Assembly (NCBI GenBank): GCA_046758745.1
Contig: JBHIAV010000030.1
Span: 1 to 36,575, forward strand
Length of the DNA stretch: 36,575 nucleotides
From: Gemmatimonadota bacterium
GTDB taxonomy: Bacteria; Gemmatimonadota; Gemmatimonadetes; Palauibacterales; Palauibacteraceae
Direction of reading: 5' to 3'
The translations under genes were made by a program, and so were the position numbers. The notes under the pieces are model-generated. The model was not told where the DNA came from and made no database searches. It was given only the letters and a program-made list of their open reading frames with translations. Of this stretch, positions 22,158 to 36,575 are shown in pieces. Within the stretch, counting starts at the first letter, position 1. Every line of letters starts with the position of its first letter.

Positions 22158-22304
22158 GCCACGCCGATCTTCGACGCGGGTCTTCCCTCCTCCCGACGTC
22201 CGTGGCGTGATTCGACGCCAGCATACTTCTCGAGCGACGGACCTCACTCGCTTGAGCGACCCCGATCATTCCCTTGGGCCACCCCAGTCGAAAGGAGGAG
22301 GGTG

Positions 22305-22769
22305 ATGACCGAGCCACGGTACCTCTCCATGGTCCGCATCGAAAAGCTCACCGGTCCACATCGCAGGGCGTACATCGAACCTTTCGAGGATCCGCTCGAG
22401 TTCGGCGTGCATGGTGAGATCGCCGAGTTCTATGGCGCGACCACCGAACGACCCCTCCCGACGACACTCGACCACATCGTCGCCGCAGCCGGCGGGTGAC
22501 TGACCGGAACCCTGGGCGGAGCCCTGGGCGCCAGAGGAATTCCGAGCGACGATGGCCAGTTGCGCTCGCTCGTCGTCGGGGAGATCGGCGAGCGTGACGG
22601 TACACTCCGTATCATGCGCATCCGAGTCCGATACGAGATCGAGATCCCTGCGGGAAAGCGTTCGGAGGCCGAGCGGGCTCTCGAGCATCACGTGTCGCAC
22701 TGTCCGGTCGCGCAAACACTGACGCCGTGCGTCGAGATCGAATGGGAGGCGGAGATAAAGGAAGTGTGA
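22305..22769 (+). CDS. OsmC/Ohr-like protein with in-frame UGA (probable selenocysteine) at 22497-22499
   Basis: AAAGGAGG RBS. ORFs 22302-22499 and 22560-22769 share one frame, giving PTTLDHIVAAAGG-U-LTGTLGGAL...HCPVAQTL; UGA sits at the OsmC first-Cys position. Confidence 0.82.
22510..22528 (+). promoter_or_regulatory. Candidate bacterial SECIS hairpin
   Basis: CCCTGGGC-GGA-GCCCTGGG; G-starting apical loop 18 nt after the UGA. Confidence 0.55.
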
Positions 22770-22794
22770 GAGTCGCATCGTGCGCGCGATTGTC

Positions 22795-22822
22795 TTGCGT
22801 GCATCGAACGATTTCTTATAAT
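22795..22822 (+). promoter_or_regulatory. sigma70 promoter of the ATP-grasp/KamA operon
   Basis: TTGCGT (22795-22800), 16-bp spacer, perfect TATAAT (22817-22822) in an AT-rich intergenic region. Confidence 0.7.
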
Positions 22823-22885
22823 GAGTTGATTGTGTTCGTTTGCAGAGTCGTAAACGAACACGCAAACTTCGAAGTGAAAGGTGTA

Positions 22886-22924
22886 GTGTCCCGGCGCGTT
22901 GAGCATATTCGACTCGGACGATAG
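22886..22924 (+). CDS. Putative Arg-rich leader peptide MSRRVEHIRLGR
   Basis: AAAGG at 22877-22881, GTG start, four Arg codons (CGG, CGC, CGA, CGA); the stop lies in a hairpin loop just before a terminator. Confidence 0.4.
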   Translation: MSRRVEHIRLGR

Positions 22925-22931
22925 CTCCGAG

Positions 22932-22955
22932 CCGCCCGGCAGAGGCGGATTTTTT
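22932..22955 (+). terminator. Intrinsic terminator/attenuator in the operon leader
   Basis: CCGCC-CGGCAGA-GGCGG followed by A and six T, ~30 nt before ATG 22985. Confidence 0.65.
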
Positions 22956-22984
22956 GTTGTCCTCCACATTCCCGGAGGCCACGA

Positions 22985-24070
22985 ATGCGGATCGGGTTCG
23001 CGTTCAACCTCAAACCGGCACTCGCGGGAATGTCGCCTTCGGGATCGCCGCTCAGCTCGTCGAACGATGCAGGGCGCTCTCCGCCCGGCGAGGCGTCGTC
23101 CTCCTGCGTCAGTCAGCATGAGGCGGGCTTCGCCGAGTGGGACACCGAAGACACGATCGAAGCGGTGGCGGCCGCGCTCTCGCAGGTGGGCGACGTAGTG
23201 CTCCTCGAGGCTAACGGAAGCTTTCCCAACCGGCTCCGACGCGCGCGACCCGATCTGGTCTTCAACATGGCGGAGAGTCGGGGCGGGCGTGCCCGCGAGG
23301 CGCATGTGCCGGCCATCCTCGAGTACTTCGGTTTCCGGTACACGGGCAGTGACCCTCTCACCCTCGCCATCACACTGGACAAGGTGATGACCAAGACGGT
23401 CCTGGCGGCATCGGGGATTCGTACGCCGGCCTTTCGCGTTTGTGAGCCGGGCGTACGGCCGAAGAAGCGCGACGTGGATCCGCCGGTCATCGTCAAGCCC
23501 CTCCACGAGGGCTCGAGCATCGGCGTGCGGAACGGGTCGCTGTGTCATAGCTACGGCGAGGCCGTGAAGCGAGTCCGCGAGATCCATGCGTCGTGGGCGC
23601 AGCCGGCACTGATCGAGACCTTTCTGCCGGGCCGCGAGTTCACCTGCGCCCTCGTCGGCAACGGATCGGCGCTGCGAGCTTACCCGCTCGTGGAGATGGA
23701 CTTCGCCGCTTTCCCGGAGGACGCGAACCCGATCTACAGCTACGAGGCGAAATGGGTCTGGGACCGACCGTCGGATCCGCTGCCCGCGTTCCGCTGCCCG
23801 GCCCGCGTGGACGAGCGGCTCGAGCGGGAGATCACGCAGACGGCGATGGTCGCGTATCGCGCCCTCGGGTGCCGCGATTGGGCGCGGATCGATCTCCGTC
23901 TCGACGAGCGGGAGCGCGTGCACGTTCTCGAGGTGAACGCGCTGCCAGGCGTGCTGCCGGATCCGAATCAGAACTCTTCCTACCCCAAGGCGGCGCGTGC
24001 CGCCGGACTCGATTTCGACGGGACGATCCTCGCCGTCGTGGAGGCGGCTCGTGTCCGGTATCGAATCTGA
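22985..24070 (+). CDS. D-Ala-D-Ala ligase-like ATP-grasp protein 1
   Basis: DLVFNMAE, YTGS...LDK, IVKPLHEGSSIG, ETFLPGREFT, ARIDLR, LEVNALPG; lacks the GGxSxEH N-terminal motif of true Ddl. Confidence 0.85.
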   Translation: MRIGFAFNLKPALAGMSPSGSPLSSSNDAGRSPPGEASSSCVSQHEAGFAEWDTEDTIEAVAAALSQVGDVVLLEANGSFPNRLRRARPDLVFNMAESRGGRAREAHVPAILEYFGFRYTGSDPLTLAITLDKVMTKTVLAASGIRTPAFRVCEPGVRPKKRDVDPPVIVKPLHEGSSIGVRNGSLCHSYGEAVKRVREIHASWAQPALIETFLPGREFTCALVGNGSALRAYPLVEMDFAAFPEDANPIYSYEAKWVWDRPSDPLPAFRCPARVDERLEREITQTAMVAYRALGCRDWARIDLRLDERERVHVLEVNALPGVLPDPNQNSSYPKAARAAGLDFDGTILAVVEAARVRYRI

Positions 24071-24083
24071 GCCTCTCCCCCCG

Positions 24084-25622
24084 ATGACGGTCGGAGTGCT
24101 GTACGAGGAGATGCACCGCCCTCCTCGCCGACCGGAACGGCTCGCCGTGCTGGACGCGGTGGACGCGACCGAGGGTGCGCTGGCCGGCTTCGGTCATCGG
24201 GTTCTGCGACTGCCCGTTCGCGCCAGCGACTTCGAATGGCTGGAGAGGCTTCGGTCCGCCGACCTCGACCTCATCTTCAACCTGTGTGAAGGGGTCGATG
24301 GCGATGGGATCGGAGAGTTCCGGGTCAGCGCCGCCGCGGAGCTGCTCGGCATACCGATGACGGGGTGCAGCGCGGACGTGCTCTCGTTCGCGCTGCGCAA
24401 GGATCGGGTGAACGGGCTGCTCGTCGGCCGGCGGTTGCCGATCCCGCCGTACACGCTGGTCGAGCTGGGACGCGTGTCACTCGAGTGGAGCCATTTCCCG
24501 GCGATCGTAAAGCCGGCCGCGCAGGACGGCTCTCTCGGTATCGACGAGCAGGCGGTGGTGCAGACGCCGGCCGAGCTCCGCGCCAAGATCGATGAGCTGC
24601 TCCCGATCTTCGAGCTCCTTCTCGTACAGCGGTTCGTGGAAGGACGCGAGTTCAACGTCGGATTCGTCGGAACCTCGCGGCTGCCGCTGGCCGAGATCGA
24701 CTTCGCGTCGATGCCGGATGGGATGGCGAGGATCGTCTCGTACAGTGCGAAGTGGGAGAGTGGCTCTCCGGCCGACCGCGGCACCATCCCCATCTGCCCG
24801 GCCGAAGTGGAACCCGAGTTGGAGGCGCGGATCGTCGAGGTCGCGGAGAGGGCGTGGCTCGCCGTCTCCTCCGGCAGCGGATACGGGAGGGTCGACGTGC
24901 GCCTGGACGTCCACGGCAGACCGTACGTGCTGGAGGTGAATCCGAATCCCGACCTCACGCCGCAGGCCGGCCTGGCGCGAATGGCAGGTGTGGCGGGGCT
25001 CGATTATCCGGCCCTGGTGGCCGCCGTGTGTCGCGAAGCTTTCGGCGGCGCCGCGAACGACGAGGGGAGGGACAAGGAACCAGCGCCCGAGCCGCAGAGG
25101 CGGCGCGCGGGCACCGTTACCCTCGCGGCGGTCGAGGCGAGCCACCGCGAGCGAATCCGCCAGATCCTGGAGGACACGGGGGTGTTCCGGTACGACGAGG
25201 TCAACGTCGCGCTCGAGGTGCTCGACGTGTACCTCAGCCAGGCCGGTCAGACCGACTACTACATCATCGGAGCGTTCAGCGAGAAGGGGGAGCTCGTCGG
25301 TTATGCCTGTTATGGACCGACACCGTGCACGGTGGGCACGTGGGACCTCTACTGGATCGCCGTCGACCCGACGCATCACGGACAGGGCGTCGGGCGCAGG
25401 TTGCTCAACCGGGTCGAGAGCGAGATCGCCGCGCGAGACGGACGTATGATTCTTGCTGAGACGTCGTCCCAACCGAGCTACAGGCCGACCCGCGAGTTCT
25501 ACGCGCATCGCGGATACGAGATGGTTTCGCGCGTAATGGACTTCTACGCTCCCGGCGACGATCGGATGATCTTCGCCAAGCGCCTCTCTGGCCCCTTCGG
25601 AGGAGCCGGGTCCGATGAATGA
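24084..25622 (+). CDS. Ddl-like ATP-grasp protein 2 fused to a C-terminal GNAT acetyltransferase
   Basis: FNLCEG, IVKPAAQDGSLGI, GREFNV, GRVDVR, EVNPNPDL; after a linker, WDLYWIAVDPTHHGQGVGRRLL (acetyl-CoA motif A) and ETSS...FY. Start ATG 24084. Confidence 0.85.
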   Translation: MTVGVLYEEMHRPPRRPERLAVLDAVDATEGALAGFGHRVLRLPVRASDFEWLERLRSADLDLIFNLCEGVDGDGIGEFRVSAAAELLGIPMTGCSADVLSFALRKDRVNGLLVGRRLPIPPYTLVELGRVSLEWSHFPAIVKPAAQDGSLGIDEQAVVQTPAELRAKIDELLPIFELLLVQRFVEGREFNVGFVGTSRLPLAEIDFASMPDGMARIVSYSAKWESGSPADRGTIPICPAEVEPELEARIVEVAERAWLAVSSGSGYGRVDVRLDVHGRPYVLEVNPNPDLTPQAGLARMAGVAGLDYPALVAAVCREAFGGAANDEGRDKEPAPEPQRRRAGTVTLAAVEASHRERIRQILEDTGVFRYDEVNVALEVLDVYLSQAGQTDYYIIGAFSEKGELVGYACYGPTPCTVGTWDLYWIAVDPTHHGQGVGRRLLNRVESEIAARDGRMILAETSSQPSYRPTREFYAHRGYEMVSRVMDFYAPGDDRMIFAKRLSGPFGGAGSDE

Positions 25623-26877
25623 ATGGCAGCAGGTACTGAAAGGGAGCATCACGACGGTCGACGAGCTGGTTGAGCGGTTCGGCGAAGAGAACGTCGACCG
25701 CGAAGCGGTCCAGCAGGCGATCGACAACTTCAACCTGCGGATCACGCCAGAAGTCCTTCAGTTCATCGAACGGGCGGGGGATGCGTTCTGGAGACAATAC
25801 ATACCGACGGCCGAGGAACTGGACGTGCGCGACGGTCTGGTCGATGCCCTCTCCGAGGACGATGACTCTCCCGTACCCAACCTCACCCATCGGTACCCCG
25901 ATCGCGTGCTCTTCCTGGTCAGCCCGGTGTGCGCCACCTACTGCCGGTTCTGCACCCGCCGGCGCAAGGTGGGCGATCCGGAGAAGATTCCGCTCAACCA
26001 GTTCGACGCGGCGTTCGCATACCTACGAGAGCACACCGAGGTTCGGGATGTGATTCTGTCTGGCGGCGATCCCTTCATGCTGTCGGATCGTCGGGTCGAC
26101 TACTTTCTCAAGACCCTGCGGGCGATCCCGCACATCGAGATCATCCGCATCCACACCCGGATCCCCTCGCACCTCCCGGAGCGGGTCACGCCCGAGCTGT
26201 GCGCGATCCTCAAGAGATATCATCCGGTGTACGTGAACCTACACTTCAACCATCCGCTCGAGCTCACCCCGAAGGCGTGCGAGGCGCTGGCGCTGCTCGC
26301 CGATGCCGGTTGCCCGCTCGGCTCCCAGACCGTGCTGATGAAGGGGGTGAACGACGACCCGGCCGTGATGAAGGAGCTGATGCTGGAGCTGGTGAAGAAC
26401 CGCGTGCGTCCGTATTACCTGTACCAGGCGGACCAGATCGCCGGCGCCGAACACTTTCGCACCACGGTGGCGAAGGGGATCGAGATCATCCGCGCACTTC
26501 GTGGATGGACCTCGGGCCTCGCCGTGCCGCACTTCGTGATCGACGCACCGGGTGGCGGCGGGAAGATCCCGATCCTCCCGGAGTACGTCGAGAAGATGAC
26601 CGATGAAGAGGTCGTGGTCCGAAACTATGCCGGGAAGCGGTTCGTCTACCGTCAGGCGGCCCCCACGCAGGTGGCCGCCCCCGCCGTGGCCACGGCCGCC
26701 GCGAACGGCAAGCGGGTTGCCGCGAGCGCCGGCACGAAGGCATCGAAGGGCTCCTCGGCCCGTCGAAACGGCAAGAGCGGGGGAAAGAAGAGAAAGGTGA
26801 GCGGAACGAGGAACGGTCGGGCCGCGCACAGCCTCGCCGAAGCGGAGGAAGAGCTGGCTGTCTCCCGAAGCCGGTGA
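25615..26877 (+). CDS. KamA-family radical SAM/PLP 2,3-aminomutase (lysine 2,3-aminomutase-like)
   Basis: HRYPDRVL, CATYCRFCTRRR (CxxxCxxC), SGGDP, HFNHP, RPYYLYQAD, DAPGGGGK PLP lysine; overlaps the upstream gene. Confidence 0.92.
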   Translation: MNEWQQVLKGSITTVDELVERFGEENVDREAVQQAIDNFNLRITPEVLQFIERAGDAFWRQYIPTAEELDVRDGLVDALSEDDDSPVPNLTHRYPDRVLFLVSPVCATYCRFCTRRRKVGDPEKIPLNQFDAAFAYLREHTEVRDVILSGGDPFMLSDRRVDYFLKTLRAIPHIEIIRIHTRIPSHLPERVTPELCAILKRYHPVYVNLHFNHPLELTPKACEALALLADAGCPLGSQTVLMKGVNDDPAVMKELMLELVKNRVRPYYLYQADQIAGAEHFRTTVAKGIEIIRALRGWTSGLAVPHFVIDAPGGGGKIPILPEYVEKMTDEEVVVRNYAGKRFVYRQAAPTQVAAPAVATAAANGKRVAASAGTKASKGSSARRNGKSGGKKRKVSGTRNGRAAHSLAEAEEELAVSRSR

Positions 26878-27023
26878 GCGCCGCCCCGGCGCCCCTGGCC
26901 GCTCCGGCAGTCGGACTCCCACCCGCCGCTGCGGGCGGTCGGCTTCCTACCTGACCTGCCCGGGCAGCGGGCACCCCGCTCGTGACCGTTTGAGCCGGGC
27001 ACGCGCACGCGGGCTGCGGAGGT

Positions 27024-27077
27024 CGACGTGAGCGTGTTCGCTCCGAAGGCCGACGTGAGCCTGTTCGCTCCGGAGGC
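27024..27077 (+). repeat. 27-bp imperfect tandem duplication spanning a start codon
   Basis: CGACGTGAGCGTGTTCGCTCCGAAGGC / CGACGTGAGCCTGTTCGCTCCGGAGGC (2 mismatches). Confidence 0.8.
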
Positions 27078-28767
27078 CGAGGGACGTCGGTACCGGCAAG
27101 GCGTCTTTCTGCCCCTCGACGCCGCGACTTTACCGGAAGCGCCGGAGGATGACCGCTTCCCCGCTCGCGGATGGGGGCCGCCGTTCCGGCGCTGCGACGA
27201 AGTGCCGCGAGTGCCCCGGCTGAAGCATCTCGTCGGCCCTTCCATCATCGCCCTCGCCATGGGACTCGGTGCCGGCGAGTTCCTGTTGTGGCCGAACCTG
27301 GTCACCGTCAACGGCTACTCGATCTGGTGGCTGTTCTGGGTGGGCGTCCTGACGCAGTTCGTGGTGATCGGCGAGATCGAGCGCTGGACGATCGCCACCG
27401 GCGAGTCGGTCTTCGCGGGAATGGCCAGGCTCGATCGGCTCGCCTTCTGGCCCTGGTTCTTCCTCGCGGCCACTCTGGTGAGCTTCTTCTGGCCGGGATG
27501 GGCGTCACAGTCCGCCGAGTACGTAGGAGAGATCGTCGAGGCGGTAACCGGAGCGCGGGTCGCCTGGCAGCCCCTCGCCCTCCTCATGCTGGCCGTCATC
27601 TGGTTCGGCCTCGCCGTCTCGCGGATCGTGTACAACGCACTGGAACGCTTCGAGATCGCCCTCGTTCTCGGCTTCTTCCCGCTTCTGGGCGTGACGTTGA
27701 TCCTCGTCGGAGTTCTTCCTTCCGACGTCCTCGCGCTCCTCGAGGGCGCGGTGTCGATCGGCTCGGCTCCACCCGAGCTCCTCACGGGAGACCAGTTCCC
27801 CACCTTGCTCATCGCCGTCGCCTACGCCGGGTCGGGCGGCACCCTCCTGCTGGCCCAGTCCCTGTGGCTGCGTGACAAGGGGTTCGGCATGGCGGTGTAC
27901 CAGGGGCGCATCGCGGGAATCCGGGGCCGCAACGAGGAGATCAGCGAGACGGGCTTCGTCTTCGATCCGGAGGGCGGGCCCGGCGCGCTCGACCGTTTCC
28001 GGGCATGGGTACGGACCGCGCACCGGGAGCTCCTCGTCACCTTCGTGCTGCTGATCCTGGCCAGCGTGGTCATCACCAGCATGCTCGTCACATCGACCCT
28101 CGGCACGGGGAACTCGGAGCTGGCGGGCGACCTGAGCGGTATGGTAGCTCGGCAGTCCGCGGTGCTCGAGCGGATGGGCGGCACCTGGTTGAAGGTGGCG
28201 TTCCTGCTCGGCGGCTCGTTCGTGCTCTTCTCCACGCAGGTCGGGATCGTGGATACCGTCACCCGGATCGCGGGCAGCATCTTCTTCGAGCGGTACGGGC
28301 GCCGCACCCGTTTTTGGACCCTGAAGCGTACCTTCCTCTTCTTCCTCACCCTGTTCGTCCTCGCCTCGATGGCCATCATCACGGTCTCCTGGGTCGGTGA
28401 GAGGTCGGTCGAACGGCTACAGCCGAACTTTCTCGTCCTCATCGCCGGCCCCTTCACCATTGCGAGCATGTATCTGTTCGCCATGGTGGTCGGTGTGGTG
28501 AACGTGCGGCGGCTTCCGCCGGCGCTGAGACCGGCCGCGTGGCGACGCTGGGCGATGGTGTGGGCGGCCGCTCTGTGGGGCTGGTTCACGGCCGAGCAGC
28601 TGAGCCGCGTGGTGCTGGCACGCCTCGGCGCTCCTACAGAGGTCATCGAATCCGTTGCCCTCGAGCCGGTACGCACCATCCTGTACGGCGCCTGGCTCCT
28701 CTCCCTCGCCTGGTTCGGCTGGCGGATCCTCGGCCCCGGCGTGCGCTCGACGAAGCGGCCGGCTTGA
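27028..28767 (+). CDS. Nramp-like/APC-superfamily membrane transporter
   Basis: VGPSIIALAMGLGAGEFLLWP, ERWTIATGES, AYAGSGG; about 12 hydrophobic segments; GGAGG RBS. Confidence 0.8.
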   Translation: MSVFAPKADVSLFAPEAEGRRYRQGVFLPLDAATLPEAPEDDRFPARGWGPPFRRCDEVPRVPRLKHLVGPSIIALAMGLGAGEFLLWPNLVTVNGYSIWWLFWVGVLTQFVVIGEIERWTIATGESVFAGMARLDRLAFWPWFFLAATLVSFFWPGWASQSAEYVGEIVEAVTGARVAWQPLALLMLAVIWFGLAVSRIVYNALERFEIALVLGFFPLLGVTLILVGVLPSDVLALLEGAVSIGSAPPELLTGDQFPTLLIAVAYAGSGGTLLLAQSLWLRDKGFGMAVYQGRIAGIRGRNEEISETGFVFDPEGGPGALDRFRAWVRTAHRELLVTFVLLILASVVITSMLVTSTLGTGNSELAGDLSGMVARQSAVLERMGGTWLKVAFLLGGSFVLFSTQVGIVDTVTRIAGSIFFERYGRRTRFWTLKRTFLFFLTLFVLASMAIITVSWVGERSVERLQPNFLVLIAGPFTIASMYLFAMVVGVVNVRRLPPALRPAAWRRWAMVWAAALWGWFTAEQLSRVVLARLGAPTEVIESVALEPVRTILYGAWLLSLAWFGWRILGPGVRSTKRPA

Positions 28768-28836
28768 GGTAGCTTTCTCGCCCTCACACCAGACCTGGCC
28801 ACGCGGAAGGCGATTGACACAGAGAAGAATGGAGCC

Positions 28837-29625
28837 GTGCTGAGGGGATATGCGGGCGGACTGGCGGCGATCCTGCTCACGGCGGGAGCGCTCGATGCTC
28901 AGCTCGCCTCGCAGAGCGACAGCGTCATCCGCCACGCCGAGGAGGAGGGGCGGCGCATCGCCGAGTACGACAACGCAGTGCACCAGGCCACCGAGGCCCT
29001 GCTGGCCGCCCGGCCGGAGCAGCATCGGATCAGCCTCTACGTGGCCCGCCAGCAGGACGCACGGTGGCACGTCTTCTTCGGCTCCATCAACATCGTCTCG
29101 TCCGAGTTCACCACCGCGTACGAGGTCACCCAGGAGGAGCCCGACGGCGACCGCTACGTGGTATCCCGTCTTACCGGGCGCGAGCCGGCCGACCCGGAGC
29201 TCTCCCGCGCCGCGACCGCTCTCGTCACCGCCCTCGGGGCGTTCGAGCCGAAGTGGGAGCGCTACCAGACCTACGTGTGGAGAGACTTCCGCGGTCGGTG
29301 GGTCACCTACTTTCTGCCGGGCCCGACCGCCGAGGGGCAGTGGCCGATCGGCGCGGACATGCGAGTCCTGGTGAGCTTCGACGGCCAGCGAATCCTCGAG
29401 GCCACGACCTTCCACGCCGATCTCACCGTGGTCGAGCCGAGCCGTGAAGCGGCGATCGCGACGCACCATCGCCACCTGGCGGGGGAGAACCCCGCGCCCA
29501 CCGATTTCGCCTACGTGCTGATCACCCCGCAGCTCGCGCCGATGGCGCTGGTGGCGAGCGACTACACTTGCACGGTAACGCGGCAGGGTCGCATGGGCCC
29601 GTGCCGGCCTAGCGAGGAAAAGTAG
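28837..29625 (+). CDS. Hypothetical secreted protein
   Basis: Signal-peptide-like N-terminus (ALDA|Q); host-like codon usage. Confidence 0.7.
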   Translation: MLRGYAGGLAAILLTAGALDAQLASQSDSVIRHAEEEGRRIAEYDNAVHQATEALLAARPEQHRISLYVARQQDARWHVFFGSINIVSSEFTTAYEVTQEEPDGDRYVVSRLTGREPADPELSRAATALVTALGAFEPKWERYQTYVWRDFRGRWVTYFLPGPTAEGQWPIGADMRVLVSFDGQRILEATTFHADLTVVEPSREAAIATHHRHLAGENPAPTDFAYVLITPQLAPMALVASDYTCTVTRQGRMGPCRPSEEK

Positions 29626-29656
29626 AGGCCGGAAACTCCGAGGAAAACTACGCTAT

Positions 29657-30235
29657 TCACCTTACCGCCAGAACGTGGCGGGGCCCTTCTGTGGTGTTCG
29701 TCAAGATCGTTCGCCGGATTGCCCGATCGAGTCCGTCCAGGTCATGAGCGCCGAACAACGCCAAGCGTACGATCCCTGCTCCATCAATGACGAGCGTTAG
29801 CGGGATCCCATTGGCGCCCCAGAGACTCTTGAGCGTCCGCATGTCGAGACCAGTCGCGTTGACGTAGTCCGCGCCCCAACGTGCAGCCCAGGCTTGCGCT
29901 TCCTCTTCGGGCACCCCGCTCACCTCCACACCGACGGCTCGCAGCCCTCGGCCGGCCCACCGGCGGTGCGCTGTGGCCAGGTCCTGCGCCTCACGACGGC
30001 AAGGTACGCACCAAGTTGCCCAAAAGTTGAGCAAGGTTCCCCTGGGGCCAAGGAGATCAACCAGTCGTGTCTCAGTTCCGTCCACTACGACTGTCAGGTC
30101 GGGCAGAGGCTCCGACATCGGAAGTGCTGGGGGACGCCGAACTTGCGCTATGAACCTGTTCTCACCGCAGCCGAGCAGGAGTAGGCCGATTACAGCTATC
30201 CCAGCCCGATGATGGTGAAGCGCGGCGCCCCTCAT
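29657..30235 (-). CDS. TlpA/ResA-like thiol-disulfide oxidoreductase lipoprotein
   Basis: Lipobox LLGC, LLNFWATWCVPC, cis-Pro GIPLTLVID; ATGA overlap with the upstream gene. Confidence 0.88.
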   Translation of the reverse strand: MRGAALHHHRAGIAVIGLLLLGCGENRFIAQVRRPPALPMSEPLPDLTVVVDGTETRLVDLLGPRGTLLNFWATWCVPCRREAQDLATAHRRWAGRGLRAVGVEVSGVPEEEAQAWAARWGADYVNATGLDMRTLKSLWGANGIPLTLVIDGAGIVRLALFGAHDLDGLDRAIRRTILTNTTEGPRHVLAVR

Positions 30236-31476
30236 AGGTCGACCTCGTAAACGCTCGCGTACTGGACGTTGAGCTCGTCCCGTTCCCTGCCGTAGATCAG
30301 CGATCCGACAACGCTGTTCGGAATGAAAACGCCAGGAAGCGCCACTCTCCCGCGTGGCCGGCCGTCCGGTTCGTAAACATGCCAGATGACACGCTCGGGA
30401 GTGAGTCTGGGGCCACGATACTCACCTGTGGGTTGAACCCAAACGGCTCCGTCTCCTCCGACCAGAAGTCTCCGGAGGGCAGGAACTCTCTCGGGAATTG
30501 GAAGTTCGGCGCGGTTCGCTCGGATTCTGCGGATCCGTTCCTCGGAGGCCTCCGACACGTCGGCGGCCGTTCGGAAGTCACGACGCTCTGTATCCGAGGC
30601 CGGCCGCAGCTTGTGCTCCACCATGAGACGGCAGGTGATCCGCCCGTCGGCGCCGACCCTCTCAAGGGTGTATTCGCCGCTGTCGGCGTACCAGAAGCCA
30701 CCATCCGGTGCGGGGGACCAGAGCGGGCTGCGGCCGAAGGGGATGTCTCTGAGCCCGCCCGCGGCGAAGAACACCTCAACGCTCGGCACGTCGCGGATCG
30801 CTTCCCATGCCTTGGCTTCACGATCCCACCGACTGACGGTGTTCAAAGCCCGGACCACTCCGCTGATACGTGAGCCAAGGTCTTCGAGCAGGCTCTCTCG
30901 AAATTTCTCGAAGCCGAGGTTGAGGAGGCCCCCTCGAGGATCGAACCGCACCTCGGGAAACTGACCGTAATTCGGACCAAGTACCGGAGACGTCGTACCG
31001 ACAAGTTGCCCGGCTGAGTCGTAGACGGTCTCGCGCCAGAGTCGCTGGTCGAAGACCCGGAGAGAGTCACCTAGGACGACTCGTAGCGTCAGCAGACCTT
31101 GGAACTCACCGGGCCCCTCACCCTGCCTGCCGAGCCTCCGGATGGGGGACCCGGTCGAATCAAAGACCGCGACCTGGTGGAGTCGGCTATCGGCGACGTA
31201 GATCCGACGTTTGCTATCAGCGTCCACAGACGTTATGAGGTCGAACATCTCGCCGCTGTCCAAGTGAACCGTCCCAATCCGCAGGGCGAGGCGTCCGTCG
31301 GACGGGCGGCTGCGGGCATTCCAATCGGGGTTGGGAATGGTCAGCTGGATGGTGCCGCCGATGTCGGACGCCTCACATCTCTCGGCCACCGCGGAGACGA
31401 CAAGATCGCCGCCGCAGGCAGCAGCGGCGAGCATAGATGCCACGGCTGCAACTGATCGGGCAGTTGAGCTACGCAT
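30232..31476 (-). CDS. 6-bladed beta-propeller (NHL-like) lipoprotein
   Basis: Lipobox AAAC, IYVADSRLHQVAVFD, GRQGEGPGEF, repeated beta-blade pattern; GGAGG RBS. Confidence 0.8.
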   Translation of the reverse strand: MRSSTARSVAAVASMLAAAACGGDLVVSAVAERCEASDIGGTIQLTIPNPDWNARSRPSDGRLALRIGTVHLDSGEMFDLITSVDADSKRRIYVADSRLHQVAVFDSTGSPIRRLGRQGEGPGEFQGLLTLRVVLGDSLRVFDQRLWRETVYDSAGQLVGTTSPVLGPNYGQFPEVRFDPRGGLLNLGFEKFRESLLEDLGSRISGVVRALNTVSRWDREAKAWEAIRDVPSVEVFFAAGGLRDIPFGRSPLWSPAPDGGFWYADSGEYTLERVGADGRITCRLMVEHKLRPASDTERRDFRTAADVSEASEERIRRIRANRAELPIPERVPALRRLLVGGDGAVWVQPTGEYRGPRLTPERVIWHVYEPDGRPRGRVALPGVFIPNSVVGSLIYGRERDELNVQYASVYEVDL

Positions 31477-32046
31477 CGTCCACCTCCGCGGTCACGGGAC
31501 ACCAAGAGAGATCCGCTGTTAACGCCTCCGGACTAGTTGCGGATGCCCCCCGCCGGAAGAAGGCGATTACGGAATCGAGGCCCCCCAGACGCTTGGAACG
31601 GCAGCAACACGGATCTCGGACATGCTCCGCCCGCCTTCTACGTAGTAGGCGGGGAAGCGGATAGCGAACAGCTCGGTGAAGGCCTTCACCGAATGGGGCT
31701 CTCCGACAACTGACACCCAATACACTAGGACGGCCTTGCCGTCGGAAAGAGTCTCTCGGTATCGCCACGGCTCTGCACCGCGCTGACACGCTTCGCAGTC
31801 TGGATCAAAGAGGTAGAAGACGGTGCAACCCGACTGCGAGAGGTCGAGAAAGCTGCTTCGACGGCCAGGGTCATCGACCGCGACCAGTGTAGCGTCCGGC
31901 AGTTGTTCGCCGACCCTGAGAGGTGGATCGAACTGCAGCATTGGATTTGCGTTAAATTGACTGGCTACCTGCCAGCCCGCAAGCGCAATGAGGACGAAGA
32001 CCACGACGGCCTTGAGCGCGAACTCGCGCAGCTTCATCTGAACCAT
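31469..32046 (-). CDS. Membrane-anchored thioredoxin-fold CxxC protein, apparently frameshifted at a G6 run (31581-31586)
   Basis: N-terminal TM, VGEQLPDATL, FDPDCEAC, AVPSV cis-Pro loop. The ORF stops at 31567; one extra G extends it to 31469, overlapping the next ATG. Alternative start ATG 32037. Confidence 0.7.
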
Positions 32047-32108
32047 TCCCTATTGACGGGTGAGAGCACGCTGAGAGGTGGAGGTCGGGCCAGCCGTTCA
32101 AGGATGCC

Positions 32109-32363
32109 TCAGCAGCCGACCTGCTGCGTTGTGAAGACCGAGGATCCGCTGCAGCTACCACCGCAGTCGCGACCGCACGCCCAACAGATGCAGCCACTGC
32201 AGAACGTGCATACTTCGACGCCGCTGGAGCAGTCGCTTCGCTCGGTCGGGCACTGCTGCGCGATTGCGGGCTCTGGGGTCTGAAACGCCAGACCCACGTT
32301 CAGCATGGCGAACGCCAAGACGAGACCCAGGAACTTCTTGTGGTTCTTCACGGCCCTACGCAT
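32109..32363 (-). CDS. Secreted cysteine-rich peptide precursor (84 aa; 10 Cys in a 49-aa mature region)
   Basis: Strong GAAAGGAGG RBS; basic n-region, hydrophobic h-region, AIA|QQ cleavage site; mature QQCPTERSDCSSGVEVCTFCSGCICWACGRDCGGSCSGSSVFTTQQVGC. Confidence 0.82.
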   Translation of the reverse strand: MRRAVKNHKKFLGLVLAFAMLNVGLAFQTPEPAIAQQCPTERSDCSSGVEVCTFCSGCICWACGRDCGGSCSGSSVFTTQQVGC

Positions 32364-32791
32364 GGACACTTCCTCCTTTCGGTCGTGACGACCGTCCCGA
32401 CCCAAACACACCTCTCAGTCTCACCGGAGCGTGAACGACCGCTCCTCCAGTTCCCTAGAGCTCGAGCCCCGCGGCGGTAGCCGCCGTGCGGCAGTTGCGG
32501 ACCATCAGGTCCGTCCGCAACAGGCCAGACTCCGAGCCTTGCGATGGTGACCAAGAAAGGCGGGCAGCCCAGTGGAGAGGGAAGCGATGGGAAAAGGGTG
32601 GACAGAACGTGAAACCTTCTTCAGTCCGGTAAAGACCTGCCGGTCCGATTCCATATCGCCAACCCCCTGACCGTAGGGCGATGCTCGGACCCGCGTTTTC
32701 TTACTACCCTTCACGTATGAGATGCCGCTCGACGGCAAAACCTTTCATCCAGTTGGAAAAGTCGGTCGCGGGAGGCAGCCCGGCGGAGACA

Positions 32792-33365
32792 TTAGCGCTC
32801 TAATCCGAGGGTCCCGGCGGTGGCGATCAGGCATAACGGCCGGAGTCCGCGCTCGCGGTTGGCGGTGACTGCCCTGCTCACGGCTTCCGGCTCGAGGTTC
32901 CCGTGCCCGTGGCCGGCAGCACCCGGAGCCGGTCCAGAGAGAAGCCGAGAACTCGGAAGGCCCGGTGCACCGCCGTGTGCGTCTGATCCGAGCAGCACGC
33001 GCGCCCTCGCCCGGCCGGCTGTCCAGCCTCTCCTTACGTGCTACGGCGAGGCCAATGAGGTTGGCGACCAACCCACCACTGGTGAGAAGGCCGGCCCCCT
33101 GATCAGGGAATCTGAAGCAGTCCTTCAGCCAGTGGACCACGAGCTCGACCTGGCTCGGTCGGCCGACTCGATCCACGTCCCCTGGAAGAAATTGCACCGG
33201 GTGGCGAGCCAGTCGCCAAGCATGCTGGCGAACGTCGGAGAGCTCGGGATAAAGGCGAAGAAGCGCGGGTGGTCGATCTTGCCGGCGAAGGGCTCGATGT
33301 CCGTCCAGAAGCGTTCGAGCACGCGCTCCAGCAGTTCTCCCTCACACGGGGAAGCGGCTCGCAGA
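32792..33365 (-). pseudogene. Degraded group II PLP-dependent decarboxylase (aromatic amino acid decarboxylase-like)
   Basis: Fragments across several frames: DHPRFFAFIPSS, PSQVELVVHWL, GLLTSGGLVANLIGLAVAR, SVHRAFRVLG, GLRPLCLIATAGT; truncated before the PLP lysine. Confidence 0.8.
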
Positions 33366-33449: not shown

Positions 33450-35477
33450 TCACCCCTTCTGCTCGGAGGCCTCCACGACGAGATCGGTCGTGTACGGAAG
33501 GGTGGAAAGACCGGAGTCCCGATCCTCCACGGTGACGGACATGCGGTAGGCGCCCGGCTCGGTGCCGCGCAGATCGAGCCTCAGATACCGCCGCGTGGCA
33601 GCTCCGCCGAACTGCGCCTCGCCCGGGAAAGTGAGTTCGAACGGCGCTCCGTCCCTCTTCGGTTCGAGCCGAACCCGCGTGACGTAGTCGCCGCCGGGAG
33701 TGAGGTTGTACGCCTCGTAGTAGACGTAGGCGATGCCATCCGGGCCGGTGGCGTGGGCCGGCGTGAGTCGCAGGAAGATGCCCCCACCGGGCGACCATGT
33801 GCCCCCGGAGTCGGCCGCCACCGCGATGTCGGAGAGCAGCGGCCGATCACCGGCGAAATCACGTACGATCAGGGCGTCACGCAGGTAATTGCCGGCGTGC
33901 ACCCCCGCCCGCGTCCGGTCCTGGGCATCCCGGACGGCCACCGTGTACCGATAGCGCCCGGGGCGCAGCGCCGTCACCATGCGGACGGGTATGCTCTCAT
34001 CCCGGTCGAGGCGATGGTCGGTGATCGTCTCGAACTCCGACCGGAGCCGGCGGAACTCGGCGTCCTCATCGAGGACCGCCCACACCGCGTCCACCCGATA
34101 ACGGAACCGACCGTCCTCGAGCGGATCGGCCAGGAGCTTCTCCGCCTCGATGACGCCGTTCAGCCACACCCGCGTCGACGTCGGGCTGGTCGCCCGATAC
34201 TGGAGAGCCTCGAAGAGCAGGCGCGGCTCCATGTCCACCGCGGGTCTTTCAGGCACGTCCCGGATCGCGAACTCCGCATCCGCGTGGGTCCAGTGCCGCT
34301 CTTCCTGCAGGAGCTGTAGCGCCAGGAACGAGCTCTGACGCGACCGGAATCCCATCTGGTAGTAGCGCGTGTCGAGTCCGCCTCGCGACGCGTACAGGTC
34401 GCCCAGCACCACCGGGGCCGAGAGAGCGATCGGAGCCAGCCGACCCTCGCCCAGCGGGGAGAGGACCAGGGTCCCGTTCGGCGTCCCGCACCGGTACACC
34501 TCAGCCAGGTTGTCGACCAGCCACCAGTCGTCCAGCCCGTTGCCGGTGGTGAAGTGATACACCCGCGTTCCGTCTGGATAGTCGTACGCCCAGCTCTCGT
34601 TCGGCTCGAAGCATTCGGGGCCCGCCACCGCCGACGGACCGCTGCCGCCGCCCGCGAAGCCGGTCTTCCGATCCGGCTCGCCCATCCTGAGGTAGATGAG
34701 CCCTCGGTCATCGAAGGTAGCGTTGCGGGGTCGGCCCATCTCGGTGGAGAACGTCGGTCCCTTCTTGCCGGAGCGGCGGGTGTAGTTGTCCAGGGCGTAG
34801 CGGAGGCGCTCGTAATGCTGGCTGATCCGCTGCCCGACGGTCACCGTAGAGGCCAGCGCCCGCTCGGACCAGAAGACGCGGAGAAAGGCGCACAGATCGC
34901 GCTGGTTGGAGGGTAGCGTGCGGAAGCGATCCCATTCGTCGGCTTCGTCCGGCGTGGCGAGCGGCCCGATGTCGAGCCAGTACTCCAGCGACCCCGCGTC
35001 GTCCGCCACCTCGCACCCTTTCCAATACGCCTCCTCGCCGAGCGCAGGGTGCTTCGCCAGGAATGCGACGCGAGCCTGGTCCAGAAGGAGCTGACCGGGA
35101 GCGACGCCGCCCTCCGCCCTGTGCAGCGCCATCTCGGCCTCGGCCGCCCGTCCCGCGCGAAGCCACAGCCGGGTGACGGCGAGCCAATCGTACCCGCTGT
35201 CCGGACCCCCTTCCTCCTCCACCCAGCGGTCGAGGAGCTCCCGTACGTCGTCGCCGTCCGGGTGAGCTCGATGATCGAGCTTCTTCGCGATCCTCTCGGC
35301 CAGCTTCTGGTGCCCGCTGGCGAGCAGCTCGTGGTAGACGGGCCCCGGCATGGTCTGAGCCTTCGCGGGTCGTGAACCCGCCCCGGGTAGCGTCGCCAGA
35401 GCCACGCCGATCACCCACCAGCGCGGGCCGCGGCGAAGACCCCGCCCCAGGGCACCCGTGCCCATCACCCTCTCCAC
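33450..35477 (-). CDS. GWxTD-domain-like secreted protein
   Basis: Signal peptide; FLRVFWSER...HYERLRYA...DDRGLIYLRMGEPD...ESWAYDY core; Ig-like C-terminus. Start GTG 35477 or ATG 35465. Confidence 0.72.
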   Translation of the reverse strand: MERVMGTGALGRGLRRGPRWWVIGVALATLPGAGSRPAKAQTMPGPVYHELLASGHQKLAERIAKKLDHRAHPDGDDVRELLDRWVEEEGGPDSGYDWLAVTRLWLRAGRAAEAEMALHRAEGGVAPGQLLLDQARVAFLAKHPALGEEAYWKGCEVADDAGSLEYWLDIGPLATPDEADEWDRFRTLPSNQRDLCAFLRVFWSERALASTVTVGQRISQHYERLRYALDNYTRRSGKKGPTFSTEMGRPRNATFDDRGLIYLRMGEPDRKTGFAGGGSGPSAVAGPECFEPNESWAYDYPDGTRVYHFTTGNGLDDWWLVDNLAEVYRCGTPNGTLVLSPLGEGRLAPIALSAPVVLGDLYASRGGLDTRYYQMGFRSRQSSFLALQLLQEERHWTHADAEFAIRDVPERPAVDMEPRLLFEALQYRATSPTSTRVWLNGVIEAEKLLADPLEDGRFRYRVDAVWAVLDEDAEFRRLRSEFETITDHRLDRDESIPVRMVTALRPGRYRYTVAVRDAQDRTRAGVHAGNYLRDALIVRDFAGDRPLLSDIAVAADSGGTWSPGGGIFLRLTPAHATGPDGIAYVYYEAYNLTPGGDYVTRVRLEPKRDGAPFELTFPGEAQFGGAATRRYLRLDLRGTEPGAYRMSVTVEDRDSGLSTLPYTTDLVVEASEQKG

Positions 35478-35478
35478 C

Positions 35479-35520
35479 CTCCGGGACTCGATCGCCCGAC
35501 TCCGGGACTCAATTGCCCAC
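35479..35520. repeat. 21-bp imperfect tandem repeat at a gene junction
   Basis: CTCCGGGACTCGATCGCCCGA / CTCCGGGACTCAATTGCCCAC. Confidence 0.6.
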
Positions 35521-36534
35521 GCCCCTGGAACGCACTTCTCGGATCTGAAGCGGCGGACCGCGACTCTTCTCGGTCCGGACCTTGAGCTCCACCCGCCGCG
35601 TGTCGCTCGTCCGCCCGGTCGCCAGGTCCGTGATCTTCACCGTGACCACGTACGGTCCCGGCTCCGTCTTGCTGAGATCGAGGCGCAGGGCCGACCGGAT
35701 GGGCTCGTTCGGATCGGTCGGCGCCGTCCCTCGATACTGGAGCTGAAACGGGCGGCGCGAGCCGCGGAACGTCTCGCCCTGTCCGGTCGAAGCCCAGGTG
35801 GAGATGAGCTTGACCTCCCCCCGGTAGACCGCCCCGGGTGTGACGCCGTACGCCTCGAAGTAGATGAACGGACGAGACTCCTTCCGTACGATGCGCGCCG
35901 CGTTCAGCTTGAGGCTGACGTGCTTCGCCGGCAGCCATGTGCCGCCGGAGTCGGCCGCGACGGCGATGGAGCTCACCACGGGACCCGGATAGGCGAGGCT
36001 CGGGATCGTGACCTCGCCGGTCTTCTCGTTGACGGCGGGAAACGCCTCCCAGTTGTGATCCGTGACCGCGATCCGGTAGCGGTACTTCCCGGGGGGCACC
36101 CGGACGCGAGCCTGGAGCGGGAAGCCGTCGCTGGTACTCTCCGGAACGAGGGCGTTCAGCGTGTGCTCGACGCGGGTTGTCTCCGAGGCGACGAGGGCGT
36201 CGTCCCGCAGGAGGTCGAAGCGCAATCCGAGGGAGTACTTCCAGCCCCCTTCGAACACGCCACGAACGCGGCCGGCGTGCACGCTCACCGCCGCCCACAC
36301 ATCCACCAGATCGTCGCTCGGGCCGGAGAACACCAGGTACTGGTAGTCGAACGGAAACGCCCCCGTCGCCTTGAGGCCGCCGCTCTCGGCCAGTCGGGTG
36401 AAGTCGGCGCCGCCCGCGCCGCCGGTGTCCTGCGCGGCGGGGAGAGCCGGGGGAGCGGTCGGAGCTAGGAGAAGGAGAGGCAGGAGGACGGGCGTGAGCT
36501 TTCCGGGCGTCTCGTACCACCGCCGGTGACGCAT
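35509..36534 (-). CDS. Secreted protein paralogous to the C-terminal half of the adjacent GWxTD-like protein
   Basis: Signal peptide; shares IAVAADSGGTW, Y(F/Y)EAY, LRLDL..TEPG.Y and PG(K/R)YRY motifs with 33450-35477. ATG 36534 has the better RBS spacing. Confidence 0.72.
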   Translation of the reverse strand: MRHRRWYETPGKLTPVLLPLLLLAPTAPPALPAAQDTGGAGGADFTRLAESGGLKATGAFPFDYQYLVFSGPSDDLVDVWAAVSVHAGRVRGVFEGGWKYSLGLRFDLLRDDALVASETTRVEHTLNALVPESTSDGFPLQARVRVPPGKYRYRIAVTDHNWEAFPAVNEKTGEVTIPSLAYPGPVVSSIAVAADSGGTWLPAKHVSLKLNAARIVRKESRPFIYFEAYGVTPGAVYRGEVKLISTWASTGQGETFRGSRRPFQLQYRGTAPTDPNEPIRSALRLDLSKTEPGPYVVTVKITDLATGRTSDTRRVELKVRTEKSRGPPLQIREVRSRGVGN

Positions 36535-36575
36535 ACGCTCCAACCTCCCGTTGGGTTCCGGCTTCGCTGCCCAAA

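Follow-up and report, generated by a model that had tools for sequence, protein, structure and literature searches.

The locus considered here raises the question of why a bacterium should encode a small secreted peptide, one fifth of whose predicted mature residues are cysteines, ahead of two thioredoxin-fold proteins and a β-propeller lipoprotein. It lies in a 36,575-nucleotide stretch of a Gemmatimonadota bacterium (GenBank assembly GCA_046758745.1, contig JBHIAV010000030.1, positions 1 to 36,575; henceforth the window), where four co-oriented genes on the minus strand at 29657-32363 code in turn for a cysteine-rich peptide precursor, a membrane-anchored thioredoxin-fold protein with a C-E-A-C motif (the CEAC protein), a six-bladed propeller lipoprotein and a TlpA-like lipoprotein. 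A first-pass annotation of this DNA had proposed a ribosomal peptide system in which a disulfide-rich mini-protein, possibly defensin-like, is folded by its own oxidoreductases, with the propeller as receptor or immunity factor; its four open reading frames (ORFs) were all confirmed, and its interpretation overall is partly supported by the analysis below. We give an even chance to the reading that the peptide is exported and knotted by disulfides, that its redox state is handled by the dedicated thioredoxin-fold proteins, and that the propeller is its binding partner.

Examination of the peptide gene reveals a strong ribosome-binding site (AAAGGAGGA, ending 7 nt 5' of the ATG) and an 84-residue precursor, which opens with a basic n-region, followed by a hydrophobic core of 17 residues and by A-I-A before Q-Q. 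Residues 1-35 read as a Sec-type signal peptide, with the cleavage site placed by rule after A35, and residues 36-84 as the mature part, and we infer that the peptide is exported by Sec and cleaved after A-I-A. The predicted mature part of 49 residues contains 10 cysteines (20%), begins with Gln, ends with Cys, includes CxxC and CxC motifs and shows the spacing C-6-C-6-C-2-C-2-C-1-C-2-C-3-C-3-C-12-C, in agreement with the first-pass description of the precursor, its ribosome-binding site, its signal peptide and its cysteines. A word-based search of 5.8 billion proteins recovered a single relative (63% identity), and a profile search of 1.84 billion representatives gave 10 proteins at E<=0.001, that is, nine others besides the window's own; metagenome assemblies are the source of every relative, the contigs being 791 to 11,012 bases long. 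A multiple alignment of 11 members showed an invariant Asn in the hydrophobic core of the signal peptide and a conserved L-N-V-G motif, a small-x-small site ahead of the first Cys in every member, with Gln after the site in eight of them, and a core of about 32-41 residues with eight cysteines and a conserved Trp (C-x6-C-x5/6-C-x2-C-x2-C-x-C-W-x-C-x3-C), to which the window member alone adds a 17-residue tail with two extra cysteines. The mature cysteine count is 6, 8 or 10, and hence even, in all 11 peptides, and the three departures from 8 each gain or lose a pair; the constancy of this parity argues for full pairing in disulfides, although among related sequences it does not amount to a statistical test. 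All members are acidic (net charge -2 to -8), unlike typical defensin-like peptides, which does not support the defensin-like character suggested earlier, and the alignment has no conserved His.

The first-pass statement that the peptide belongs to no described family stands. Neither Pfam (E up to 0.1) nor NCBIfam holds a family for it, and a profile search of the PDB with the whole family gave nothing below E 0.05, the sole match at that value, Ribonuclease 7, being taken as chance. The best ESM Atlas score was 0.79, below the level of a lead; tblastn against a plasmid collection gave no match, and the family profile found no other member in 400 sampled genomes of the phylum. Five loci (one from a metagenome, four from genomes) matched with closer relatives of the peptide were rejected, the matches being out of frame in GC-rich DNA. 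Just three ORFs in 3.08 Mb passed a crude genome-wide filter that required a signal peptide and at least six cysteines, and this rarity, together with the conserved relatives, argues that the ORF is not a product of chance. Judged by these comparisons, the peptide gene is a real, conserved member of a rare cysteine-rich family.

The second gene encodes a protein of 159 residues (156 from the second ATG) with an N-terminal hydrophobic anchor of one helix and the C-E-A-C motif. Matches to hidden Markov models (HMMs) are weak and below cut-off (Redoxin, E 0.082; ResA, E 0.0013), and a phmmer search of the PDB gives CcmG at E 0.28. The ESM Atlas places residues 35-159 with AhpC-TSA/Redoxin/Thioredoxin clusters at a feature score of 0.95 and template-modelling (TM) scores of 0.60-0.69, with all 10 rows reaching the Atlas bar for Redoxin. 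On the strength of these models we take the predicted product to have a redoxin fold, anchored in the membrane, in which CxxC marks the N-terminus of helix 1; this agrees with its first-pass description as a CxxC thioredoxin-fold membrane protein. It has no word-sharing relative in the 5.8-billion-protein database and no close relative in 60 related genomes.

The third product matches the Pfam family DUF5128 (PF17170) at 28.1 bits against a cut-off of 22.9, over residues 88-126 only, and PF17170 is also the precomputed annotation of many of its relatives. Its AlphaFold2 model has a predicted local distance difference test (pLDDT) score of 86.2 and a predicted TM score (pTM) of 0.85. Foldseek matches the model to NHL domains at E 7e-15 to 1e-12, the best being that of Thin, and VIA-align superposes it on NHL domains with Z 21.0-17.2 over about 255-261 residues, the upper value being for Brat (261 residues, root-mean-square deviation 3.2 A); Bacteroides BF0058 and BVU_1028 appear lower among the structural matches. 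The lipobox Cys is kept in 24 of 30 aligned relatives. The modelled product is thus an NHL-type six-bladed propeller lipoprotein, as the first pass had read it. A Cys at residue 282 is common to just three of the 30 aligned sequences. The best match among the 400 sampled genomes of the phylum is one gene in genome G266 (E 2.4e-70), the only one of these genomes with a close relative of the propeller. The source names attached to related propellers point to Gemmatimonadetes. DUF5128-type propeller lipoproteins are strongly expanded in related genomes, with matches in 58 of 61 and up to 32 per genome. The propeller genes of these genomes often stand in tandem runs of three to five.

The fourth gene encodes a protein with an L-L-L-G-C lipobox, as read from the sequence, and a W-C-V-P-C motif that falls in invariant W, C, P and C columns of the alignment. 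Two Pfam families recognise it above their cut-offs, AhpC-TSA (46.7 bits against 26, E 3.6e-12) and Redoxin (33.5 bits against 26.6). Models of TlpA, DsbE and ResA match it with E values from 4e-13 to 5e-12, at scores that fall far short of the respective equivalog or subfamily cut-offs (for TlpA, 49.6 against 230 bits). These family models and the lipobox bear out the earlier reading of a TlpA lipoprotein. Elsewhere the host genome codes for a DsbA-like/VKOR pair, a second DsbA-like protein and a DsbD-type membrane protein (DsbD_TM, contig C16), so that exported cysteines would meet both oxidising and reducing routes. No cytochrome c maturation genes or genes for Sco/Cox clients were found in the window.

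The organization and composition of the locus bear on whether these four genes belong together. In gene order they are separated by 62 nt and 90 nt, and the propeller stop and the TlpA start then share a 4-nt ATGA overlap. The first-pass description of the last three genes as tightly coupled is therefore right for the last two, the only ones truly coupled, and slightly overstated for the second gene, which lies 90 nt from the propeller gene. The GC content at third codon positions (GC3) is 0.80, 0.69, 0.70 and 0.66 from the peptide gene to the TlpA-like gene, compared with 0.88, 0.89 and 0.85 in three flanking genes, and the impression of a less GC-biased codon usage than in the flanks is thereby confirmed. 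An Rfam scan gave no matches.

Comparison with related genomes points to the origin of this block. To the right of the cassette lies a frameshifted remnant of a decarboxylase gene, which matches Pyridoxal_deC at E 6.5e-4 and, by tblastn, a full-length gene in genome G004 at E 2e-36. In G004 the full-length decarboxylase lies between an array of genes for 675-residue proteins and gyrA, and in G021 the 3' end of an intact decarboxylase meets a gene for a 262-residue protein tail to tail; in the window the four genes occupy the interval that the decarboxylase fills in those two genomes. About 3.1 kb (29626 to ~32800) have replaced the 3' two thirds of the decarboxylase gene. Contigs from several runs of a single vent study span the two junctions; as three of the four bridging runs may be the source of the DNA itself, the bridging argues only against mis-assembly. 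The runs that contain the cassette DNA bear the label hydrothermal vent metagenome. The edges show no convincing repeats, direct or inverted, and no exporter, leader peptidase, immunity gene or glycosyltransferase was recognised among the ORFs of the 3.1-kb block or by Pfam and NCBIfam. Composition and genome comparison together show that all four genes came in with a single insertion, distinct in composition and horizontally acquired. In run X4, a contig of a more abundant organism that is about 90% alike seems to join 28717 to 33160, skipping both the gene for the 262-residue protein and the cassette; with 36 letters on its short side, this possible relative lacking the block is too weak to use.

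A comparable order of genes recurs elsewhere in the phylum. None of the conclusions depends on three genomes flagged as unpublished, G211, G236 and G116. Among weak, seemingly chance matches of the peptide search there surfaced cassettes in the genomes G390 (C1:59000-69500) and G354 that consist of a 73-residue signal-peptide precursor with eight cysteines, a 192-residue membrane-anchored protein with a C-A-Y-C motif and an AhpC/TSA fold (PF00578, 27.5 against 26 bits), and a 429-residue lipoprotein with the propeller signature G-x-G-P-G-E-F, the gene for which overlaps that of the CAYC protein by 4 nt. The C-E-A-C motif of the window protein aligns with this C-A-Y-C (E 0.029), and the window propeller aligns with the G390-type propeller (E 1e-4). 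These cassettes are flanked by a divergent ABC (ATP-binding cassette) ATPase and ABC-2 permease on one side and by a PAS histidine kinase on the other. The order of peptide, membrane CxxC thioredoxin and propeller is seen once each in G390, G354, G179 and G402 and at two loci of G215, and a 4-nt overlap is frequent. The G390-type peptides form one family, acidic, with eight cysteines and paired Cys-Cys doublets, for which no homology to the window peptide family is detectable (hhalign probability 9%). A second comparison of the window family, with alignment A6, gave an hhalign probability of 15%, and both of the compared families are taken as unrelated to it. An Asn in the hydrophobic leader is common to the compared families, which is noted as a resemblance only.

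Of 401 sampled genomes, 19 have the G390-type membrane thioredoxin, and 18 of these belong to one family, which is represented by 70 genomes. The neighbourhoods of this thioredoxin were counted in 30 loci out of the 48 matches listed, and in 18 of the 30 the propeller signature follows the membrane thioredoxin on the same strand. A further arrangement is seen in G145 (C66:1-10000), where at least four DUF5128-type propeller genes are interleaved with three exported cysteine-rich ORFs (79, 79 and 141 residues). This cluster also contains a gene for a 219-residue membrane protein of no known family. The occurrence of the same layout with unrelated peptides across the phylum argues for a functional link between its components.

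In light of these observations, we propose that the locus is a horizontally acquired envelope cassette, and perhaps the first visible case of an undescribed class spread across the phylum. A small acidic protein would be exported through Sec, cut after A-I-A and held in a compact fold by up to five disulfides. The CEAC protein, tethered to the inner membrane by its one helix with the active site in the periplasm, would act on the cysteines of the emerging peptide and form, check or reshuffle disulfides until the five correct pairs are reached. The propeller lipoprotein would bind the peptide, either as a platform for its folding or presentation or as its cognate receptor or immunity protein, and the coupled TlpA-like lipoprotein would be an accessory redox partner that works at the propeller or next to it and probably draws its electrons from the DsbD/CcdA pathway.

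Several observations weigh against this reading. At the locus itself, no sigma-70-like sites were found, the presumed promoter region included; terminator-like sites number 5 against 2.8 expected, none of them intergenic in the cassette; the predicted RNA folds of the intergenic stretches, including 32364-32809, are no better than those of shuffled sequences; and the sequencing runs listed as containing the cassette DNA include no RNA dataset. AlphaFold2, given the 11-row alignment, returned a mean pLDDT of 57.4 for the peptide, with residues 56-84 below 50. Elsewhere, no signal-peptide cysteine-rich ORF passed the filter upstream of the membrane thioredoxin in 24 of the 30 G390-type loci (six have one), and none was found within 1.5-kb flanks at 19 loci of propeller paralogs. 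Among the 64 propeller and 18 TlpA matches in five complete genomes there is just one case of the two within 5 kb of each other, and the genes of that pair are not adjacent, having three ORFs between them. At the propeller relative of G266, the next gene downstream encodes a TlpA-like lipoprotein (W-C-I-P-C), and both peptide and membrane thioredoxin are missing; a tree does not show the TlpA genes of the window and G266 to be sisters. The contigs of the peptide relatives coincide in size with none listed for the propeller relatives, so that co-location of the two elsewhere is not shown. The G266 pair is one instance of the outcome that the first-pass annotation had named as refuting it, a propeller/TlpA locus without an adjacent cysteine-rich peptide. 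The G266 pair lies downstream of ORFs that by eye resemble arginine-pathway genes.

A third variant of the layout, which bears on the proposal from both sides, was found in the host genome itself. Its contig C50 (1-1885) contains the end of a thioredoxin-like gene, a 68-residue signal-peptide ORF with a strong Shine-Dalgarno sequence and the gene of a six-bladed propeller of the TolB-like type (PF15869, E 4e-19). Of 60 related genomes, 13 contain a match to the small ORF, with peptides of 68-77 residues, and in all nine loci of relatives that were examined a TolB-like propeller gene directly follows it. A thioredoxin-like domain is encoded upstream in six of the nine by tblastn; of the remaining three, one has only 250 nt upstream, one has a similar ORF by eye and one has none. 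This domain, which is ResA/DsbE-like (E 2.6e-8) with no CxxC, forms the C-terminus of a protein that exceeds 400 residues and whose N-terminal part looks helical-repeat-like by eye. The peptides have three or five cysteines, an odd number in 10 of 10, and match no Pfam model, NVEALA (PF14055) included, in any of the 10 at E up to 10. An intermolecular disulfide between these odd-cysteine peptides and the TolB-like propellers was considered and ruled out, the propellers being without a conserved Cys. Thus a cysteine-free variant of the layout, with no CxxC in its thioredoxin-like domain, is present in nine further loci, and together with the odd cysteine counts it indicates that the recurring theme is not always one of redox chemistry. 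The theme is a thioredoxin fold, a small exported peptide and a six-bladed propeller, of which only some versions are equipped for thiol chemistry.

The same observations have to be read against other explanations of the cassette. The thioredoxin-fold proteins and the propeller could work by themselves in envelope redox chemistry or repair, as a unit that serves many clients and corresponds to NHLRC2/SOQ1 split into separate proteins; the peptide would then be a passenger, or at most one client or regulator. Such a unit would account for the adjacent propeller and TlpA-like genes of G266 that do without a peptide, for the G390-type loci, of which 18 in 30 have a propeller after the membrane thioredoxin but only 6 in 30 a peptide before it, and for the NHL-type model of the window propeller. 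It would also accord with the occurrence of fused proteins with a TlpA-like thioredoxin domain and an NHL propeller from bacteria to humans, the thioredoxin domain of SOQ1 being described as sitting on the propeller (PMC6107167; bioRxiv 10.1101/2021.03.16.435614), and with the joining of a DsbB-like protein to a propeller in Helicobacter DsbI (PMC4460558). What it leaves hard to explain by chance is the presence of at least three unrelated cysteine-rich peptide families at the same position directly upstream, and the window peptide moreover has the atypical GC3 of the cassette and came in the same insertion. Furthermore, the chains of NHLRC2 and SOQ1 are not among the 50 structural matches listed, and their CC(I/V)NC motif is absent from the cassette proteins. 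We consider such a unit unlikely as the explanation of the window cassette.

The remaining explanations concern the peptide itself. Given a mature part that is 20% cysteine with CxxC and CxC motifs, proteins in the cassette that are TlpA/ResA-like rather than DsbA-like, a DsbD-type electron supplier in the genome and source runs labelled as hydrothermal vent metagenome, the exported peptide might bind metals through its thiolates, an ability of use in a metal-rich vent habitat, and the two TlpA-type proteins would then be reductases that keep its cysteines reduced in the oxidising periplasm. TlpA reportedly acts as such a reductase for ScoI and CoxB before copper insertion. However, a TlpA-like fold does not by itself tell in which direction a protein acts, and mycobacterial DsbE and DsbF, which have the same fold, act as oxidases. 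Disulfide pairing predicts what the 11 members show, an even number of cysteines throughout and their gain or loss by twos, whereas a metal cluster does not require it. In addition, there is no conserved His, and Sec would deliver an unfolded chain into a compartment with a DsbA-like/VKOR pair, all of which makes a metal binder quite improbable in our view. We regard as very improbable a form of the peptide in which the N-terminal segment stays uncleaved, so that it would be a small single-pass membrane protein with a cysteine-rich ectodomain working with the anchored thioredoxin and the lipoproteins. The invariant Asn and the L-N-V-G motif, more conserved across the 11 members than an ordinary signal peptide needs, would speak for such a form, as would the membrane tethers of all three other cassette proteins and the existence of a class of bacteriocins that mature within the membrane and have a DsbA-like enzyme of their own (PMC13712780). 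Yet a small-x-small site precedes the first Cys in all 11 members, Gln comes next in eight of them, and the n-h-c layout is textbook Sec.

Bacteroidota genes for DUF5128 and TolB-like propellers are known to neighbour genes for small NVEALA proteins, and the window and contig C50 contain propellers of the same Pfam families (PF17170 and PF15869, respectively); neither of the two peptide families matches any Pfam model, NVEALA included, at E up to 0.1 (window) or 10 (C50). A literature search over titles and abstracts, supplementary files not being covered, found nothing on DUF5128, NVEALA, such cassettes or cysteine-rich peptides of Gemmatimonadota. The thioredoxin-fold proteins of the cassette share with TlpA, ResA and CcmG (DsbE) the fold and a membrane or lipid anchor, and the TlpA-like one also a W-C-x-x-C site, while the CEAC protein differs from them in its unusual D-x-D-C-E-A-C site.

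Beyond these families, the cassette resembles several systems from other lineages. Certain bacteriocin loci of Gram-positive bacteria contain genes for their own thiol-disulfide enzymes: bdbA and bdbB in the sublancin locus sunA-sunT-bdbA-sunS-bdbB (PMC4336743), PedC for pediocin and BlpG for thermophilin (PMC4919988), and the DsbA-like TmcD in the TMcin locus (PMC13712780). In these, as in the window, a small ribosomal peptide gene comes first and is followed by co-oriented genes for CxxC proteins of the thioredoxin superfamily, which in the bacteriocin loci secure the disulfides of the peptide. However, the bacteriocin peptides have 2-4 cysteines instead of the 8-10 of the cassette peptides, and a double-glycine leader with a dedicated ABC exporter instead of a Sec signal peptide; the cassette differs further in its diderm host, its two TlpA-fold proteins and a propeller lipoprotein without counterpart in those loci. 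Its peptide is also acidic, with no antimicrobial activity on record, and typical defensin-like peptides likewise differ from it in charge.

In NHLRC2 and SOQ1, a thioredoxin fold of the TlpA family stands beside an NHL six-bladed propeller outside the cytoplasm, as in the cassette, and the SOQ1 propeller is described as a probable scaffold (PMC6107167; bioRxiv 10.1101/2021.03.16.435614). In the cassette, unlike in these fusions, which have the thioredoxin domain first, propeller and TlpA-like protein are encoded in that order by separate, translationally coupled genes; both products are predicted lipoproteins, the propeller is of the DUF5128 family and there is no C-terminal β domain. The motifs are W-C-V-P-C and C-E-A-C in the cassette, against the CC(I/V)NC given for NHLRC2/SOQ1 (PMC6107167). 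Helicobacter offers a parallel in which DsbI carries a periplasmic β-propeller and a dedicated Dsb protein folds the disulfide-rich secreted Hcp proteins (PMC4460558). In DsbI, however, a DsbB-like membrane enzyme and its propeller form one chain, and the Hcp proteins are large and built of Sel1 repeats; no relation in sequence to the cassette proteins was noticed, though no search aimed at one was made. The cassette thus combines features of the bacteriocin-type, NHLRC2/SOQ1 and DsbI systems and is a member of none.

Table 1. Predicted features of the cassette and its right-hand flank, in window coordinates
Feature	Position	Strand	Basis
Exported Cys-rich peptide precursor, 84 aa	32109..32363	-	ORF, ribosome-binding site, family alignment
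Predicted mature peptide, 49 aa	32112..32258	-	Alignment; cleavage site by A-x-A rule
Membrane-anchored redoxin/TlpA-fold protein, C-E-A-C, 159 aa, predicted to face the periplasm	31567..32046	-	HMM, ESM Atlas
DUF5128 NHL-type six-bladed β-propeller lipoprotein (modelled), 414 aa	30232..31476	-	Pfam, AlphaFold2, Foldseek, VIA-align, lipobox
TlpA/ResA/DsbE-like thiol-disulfide oxidoreductase lipoprotein, W-C-V-P-C, 192 aa	29657..30235	-	HMMs, alignment
Non-coding stretch upstream of the peptide gene, presumed promoter region	32364..32809	-	Lies between peptide start and last decarboxylase homology
Frameshifted N-terminal remnant of pyridoxal phosphate-dependent decarboxylase, right-hand insertion edge	32810..33364	-	Pyridoxal_deC, tblastn

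Further observations concern the surroundings of the cassette (features of which are collected in Table 1). The block at 22200-29625 codes for a fusion of a D-Ala-D-Ala-ligase-like ATP-grasp domain with a GNAT acetyltransferase, a radical SAM (S-adenosylmethionine) enzyme of the lysine-2,3-aminomutase type, a 579-residue multi-pass membrane protein and the 262-residue protein; it is absent between gyrA and the 675-residue gene array in G011 and G004 and present in G021, there without the 579-residue gene by tblastn. On the other side, 33450-36573 on the minus strand encodes tandem paralogs of a secreted protein of about 675 residues with no Pfam family, which also occur in the relatives G004, G011, G016, G006, G010 and G022; these proteins are conserved at 42-62% identity in nine of 22 genomes of the same family. 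Elsewhere in the host genome, contig C2 (80738-81055) encodes a 105-residue predicted lipoprotein with about a dozen tandem five-residue repeats of one Cys each, 12 in total, which may be a surface thiol or metal-binding protein.

On a broader scale, Gemmatimonadota might carry an undescribed class of fast-diverging cysteine-rich mini-proteins, each with a membrane thioredoxin that matures it and a cognate propeller that recognises it. The tandem propeller arrays would then be receptor or immunity repertoires against the peptides of neighbours, comparable to toxin-immunity arrays, and the window cassette would be one such unit just after horizontal transfer. We offer this as a speculation that is unlikely to hold in full. 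If the link between peptide, thioredoxin fold and propeller is not real, the locus would come down to a rare secreted peptide beside ordinary envelope redox genes. If it is real, it would provide a first function for the DUF5128 and TolB-like propeller lipoproteins and for several unnamed families of exported cysteine-rich mini-proteins, and it would carry the idea of peptides equipped with disulfide machinery of their own, so far drawn from a few Gram-positive bacteriocins, over to a diderm phylum for which hardly any genetics exists. The compact scaffolds of 8-10 cysteines from a vent organism may also be of practical interest as stable peptide frameworks. Finally, a real link would offer a bacterial model for the cooperation of thioredoxin domains with NHL propellers, a question that is still open for human NHLRC2 and plant SOQ1.

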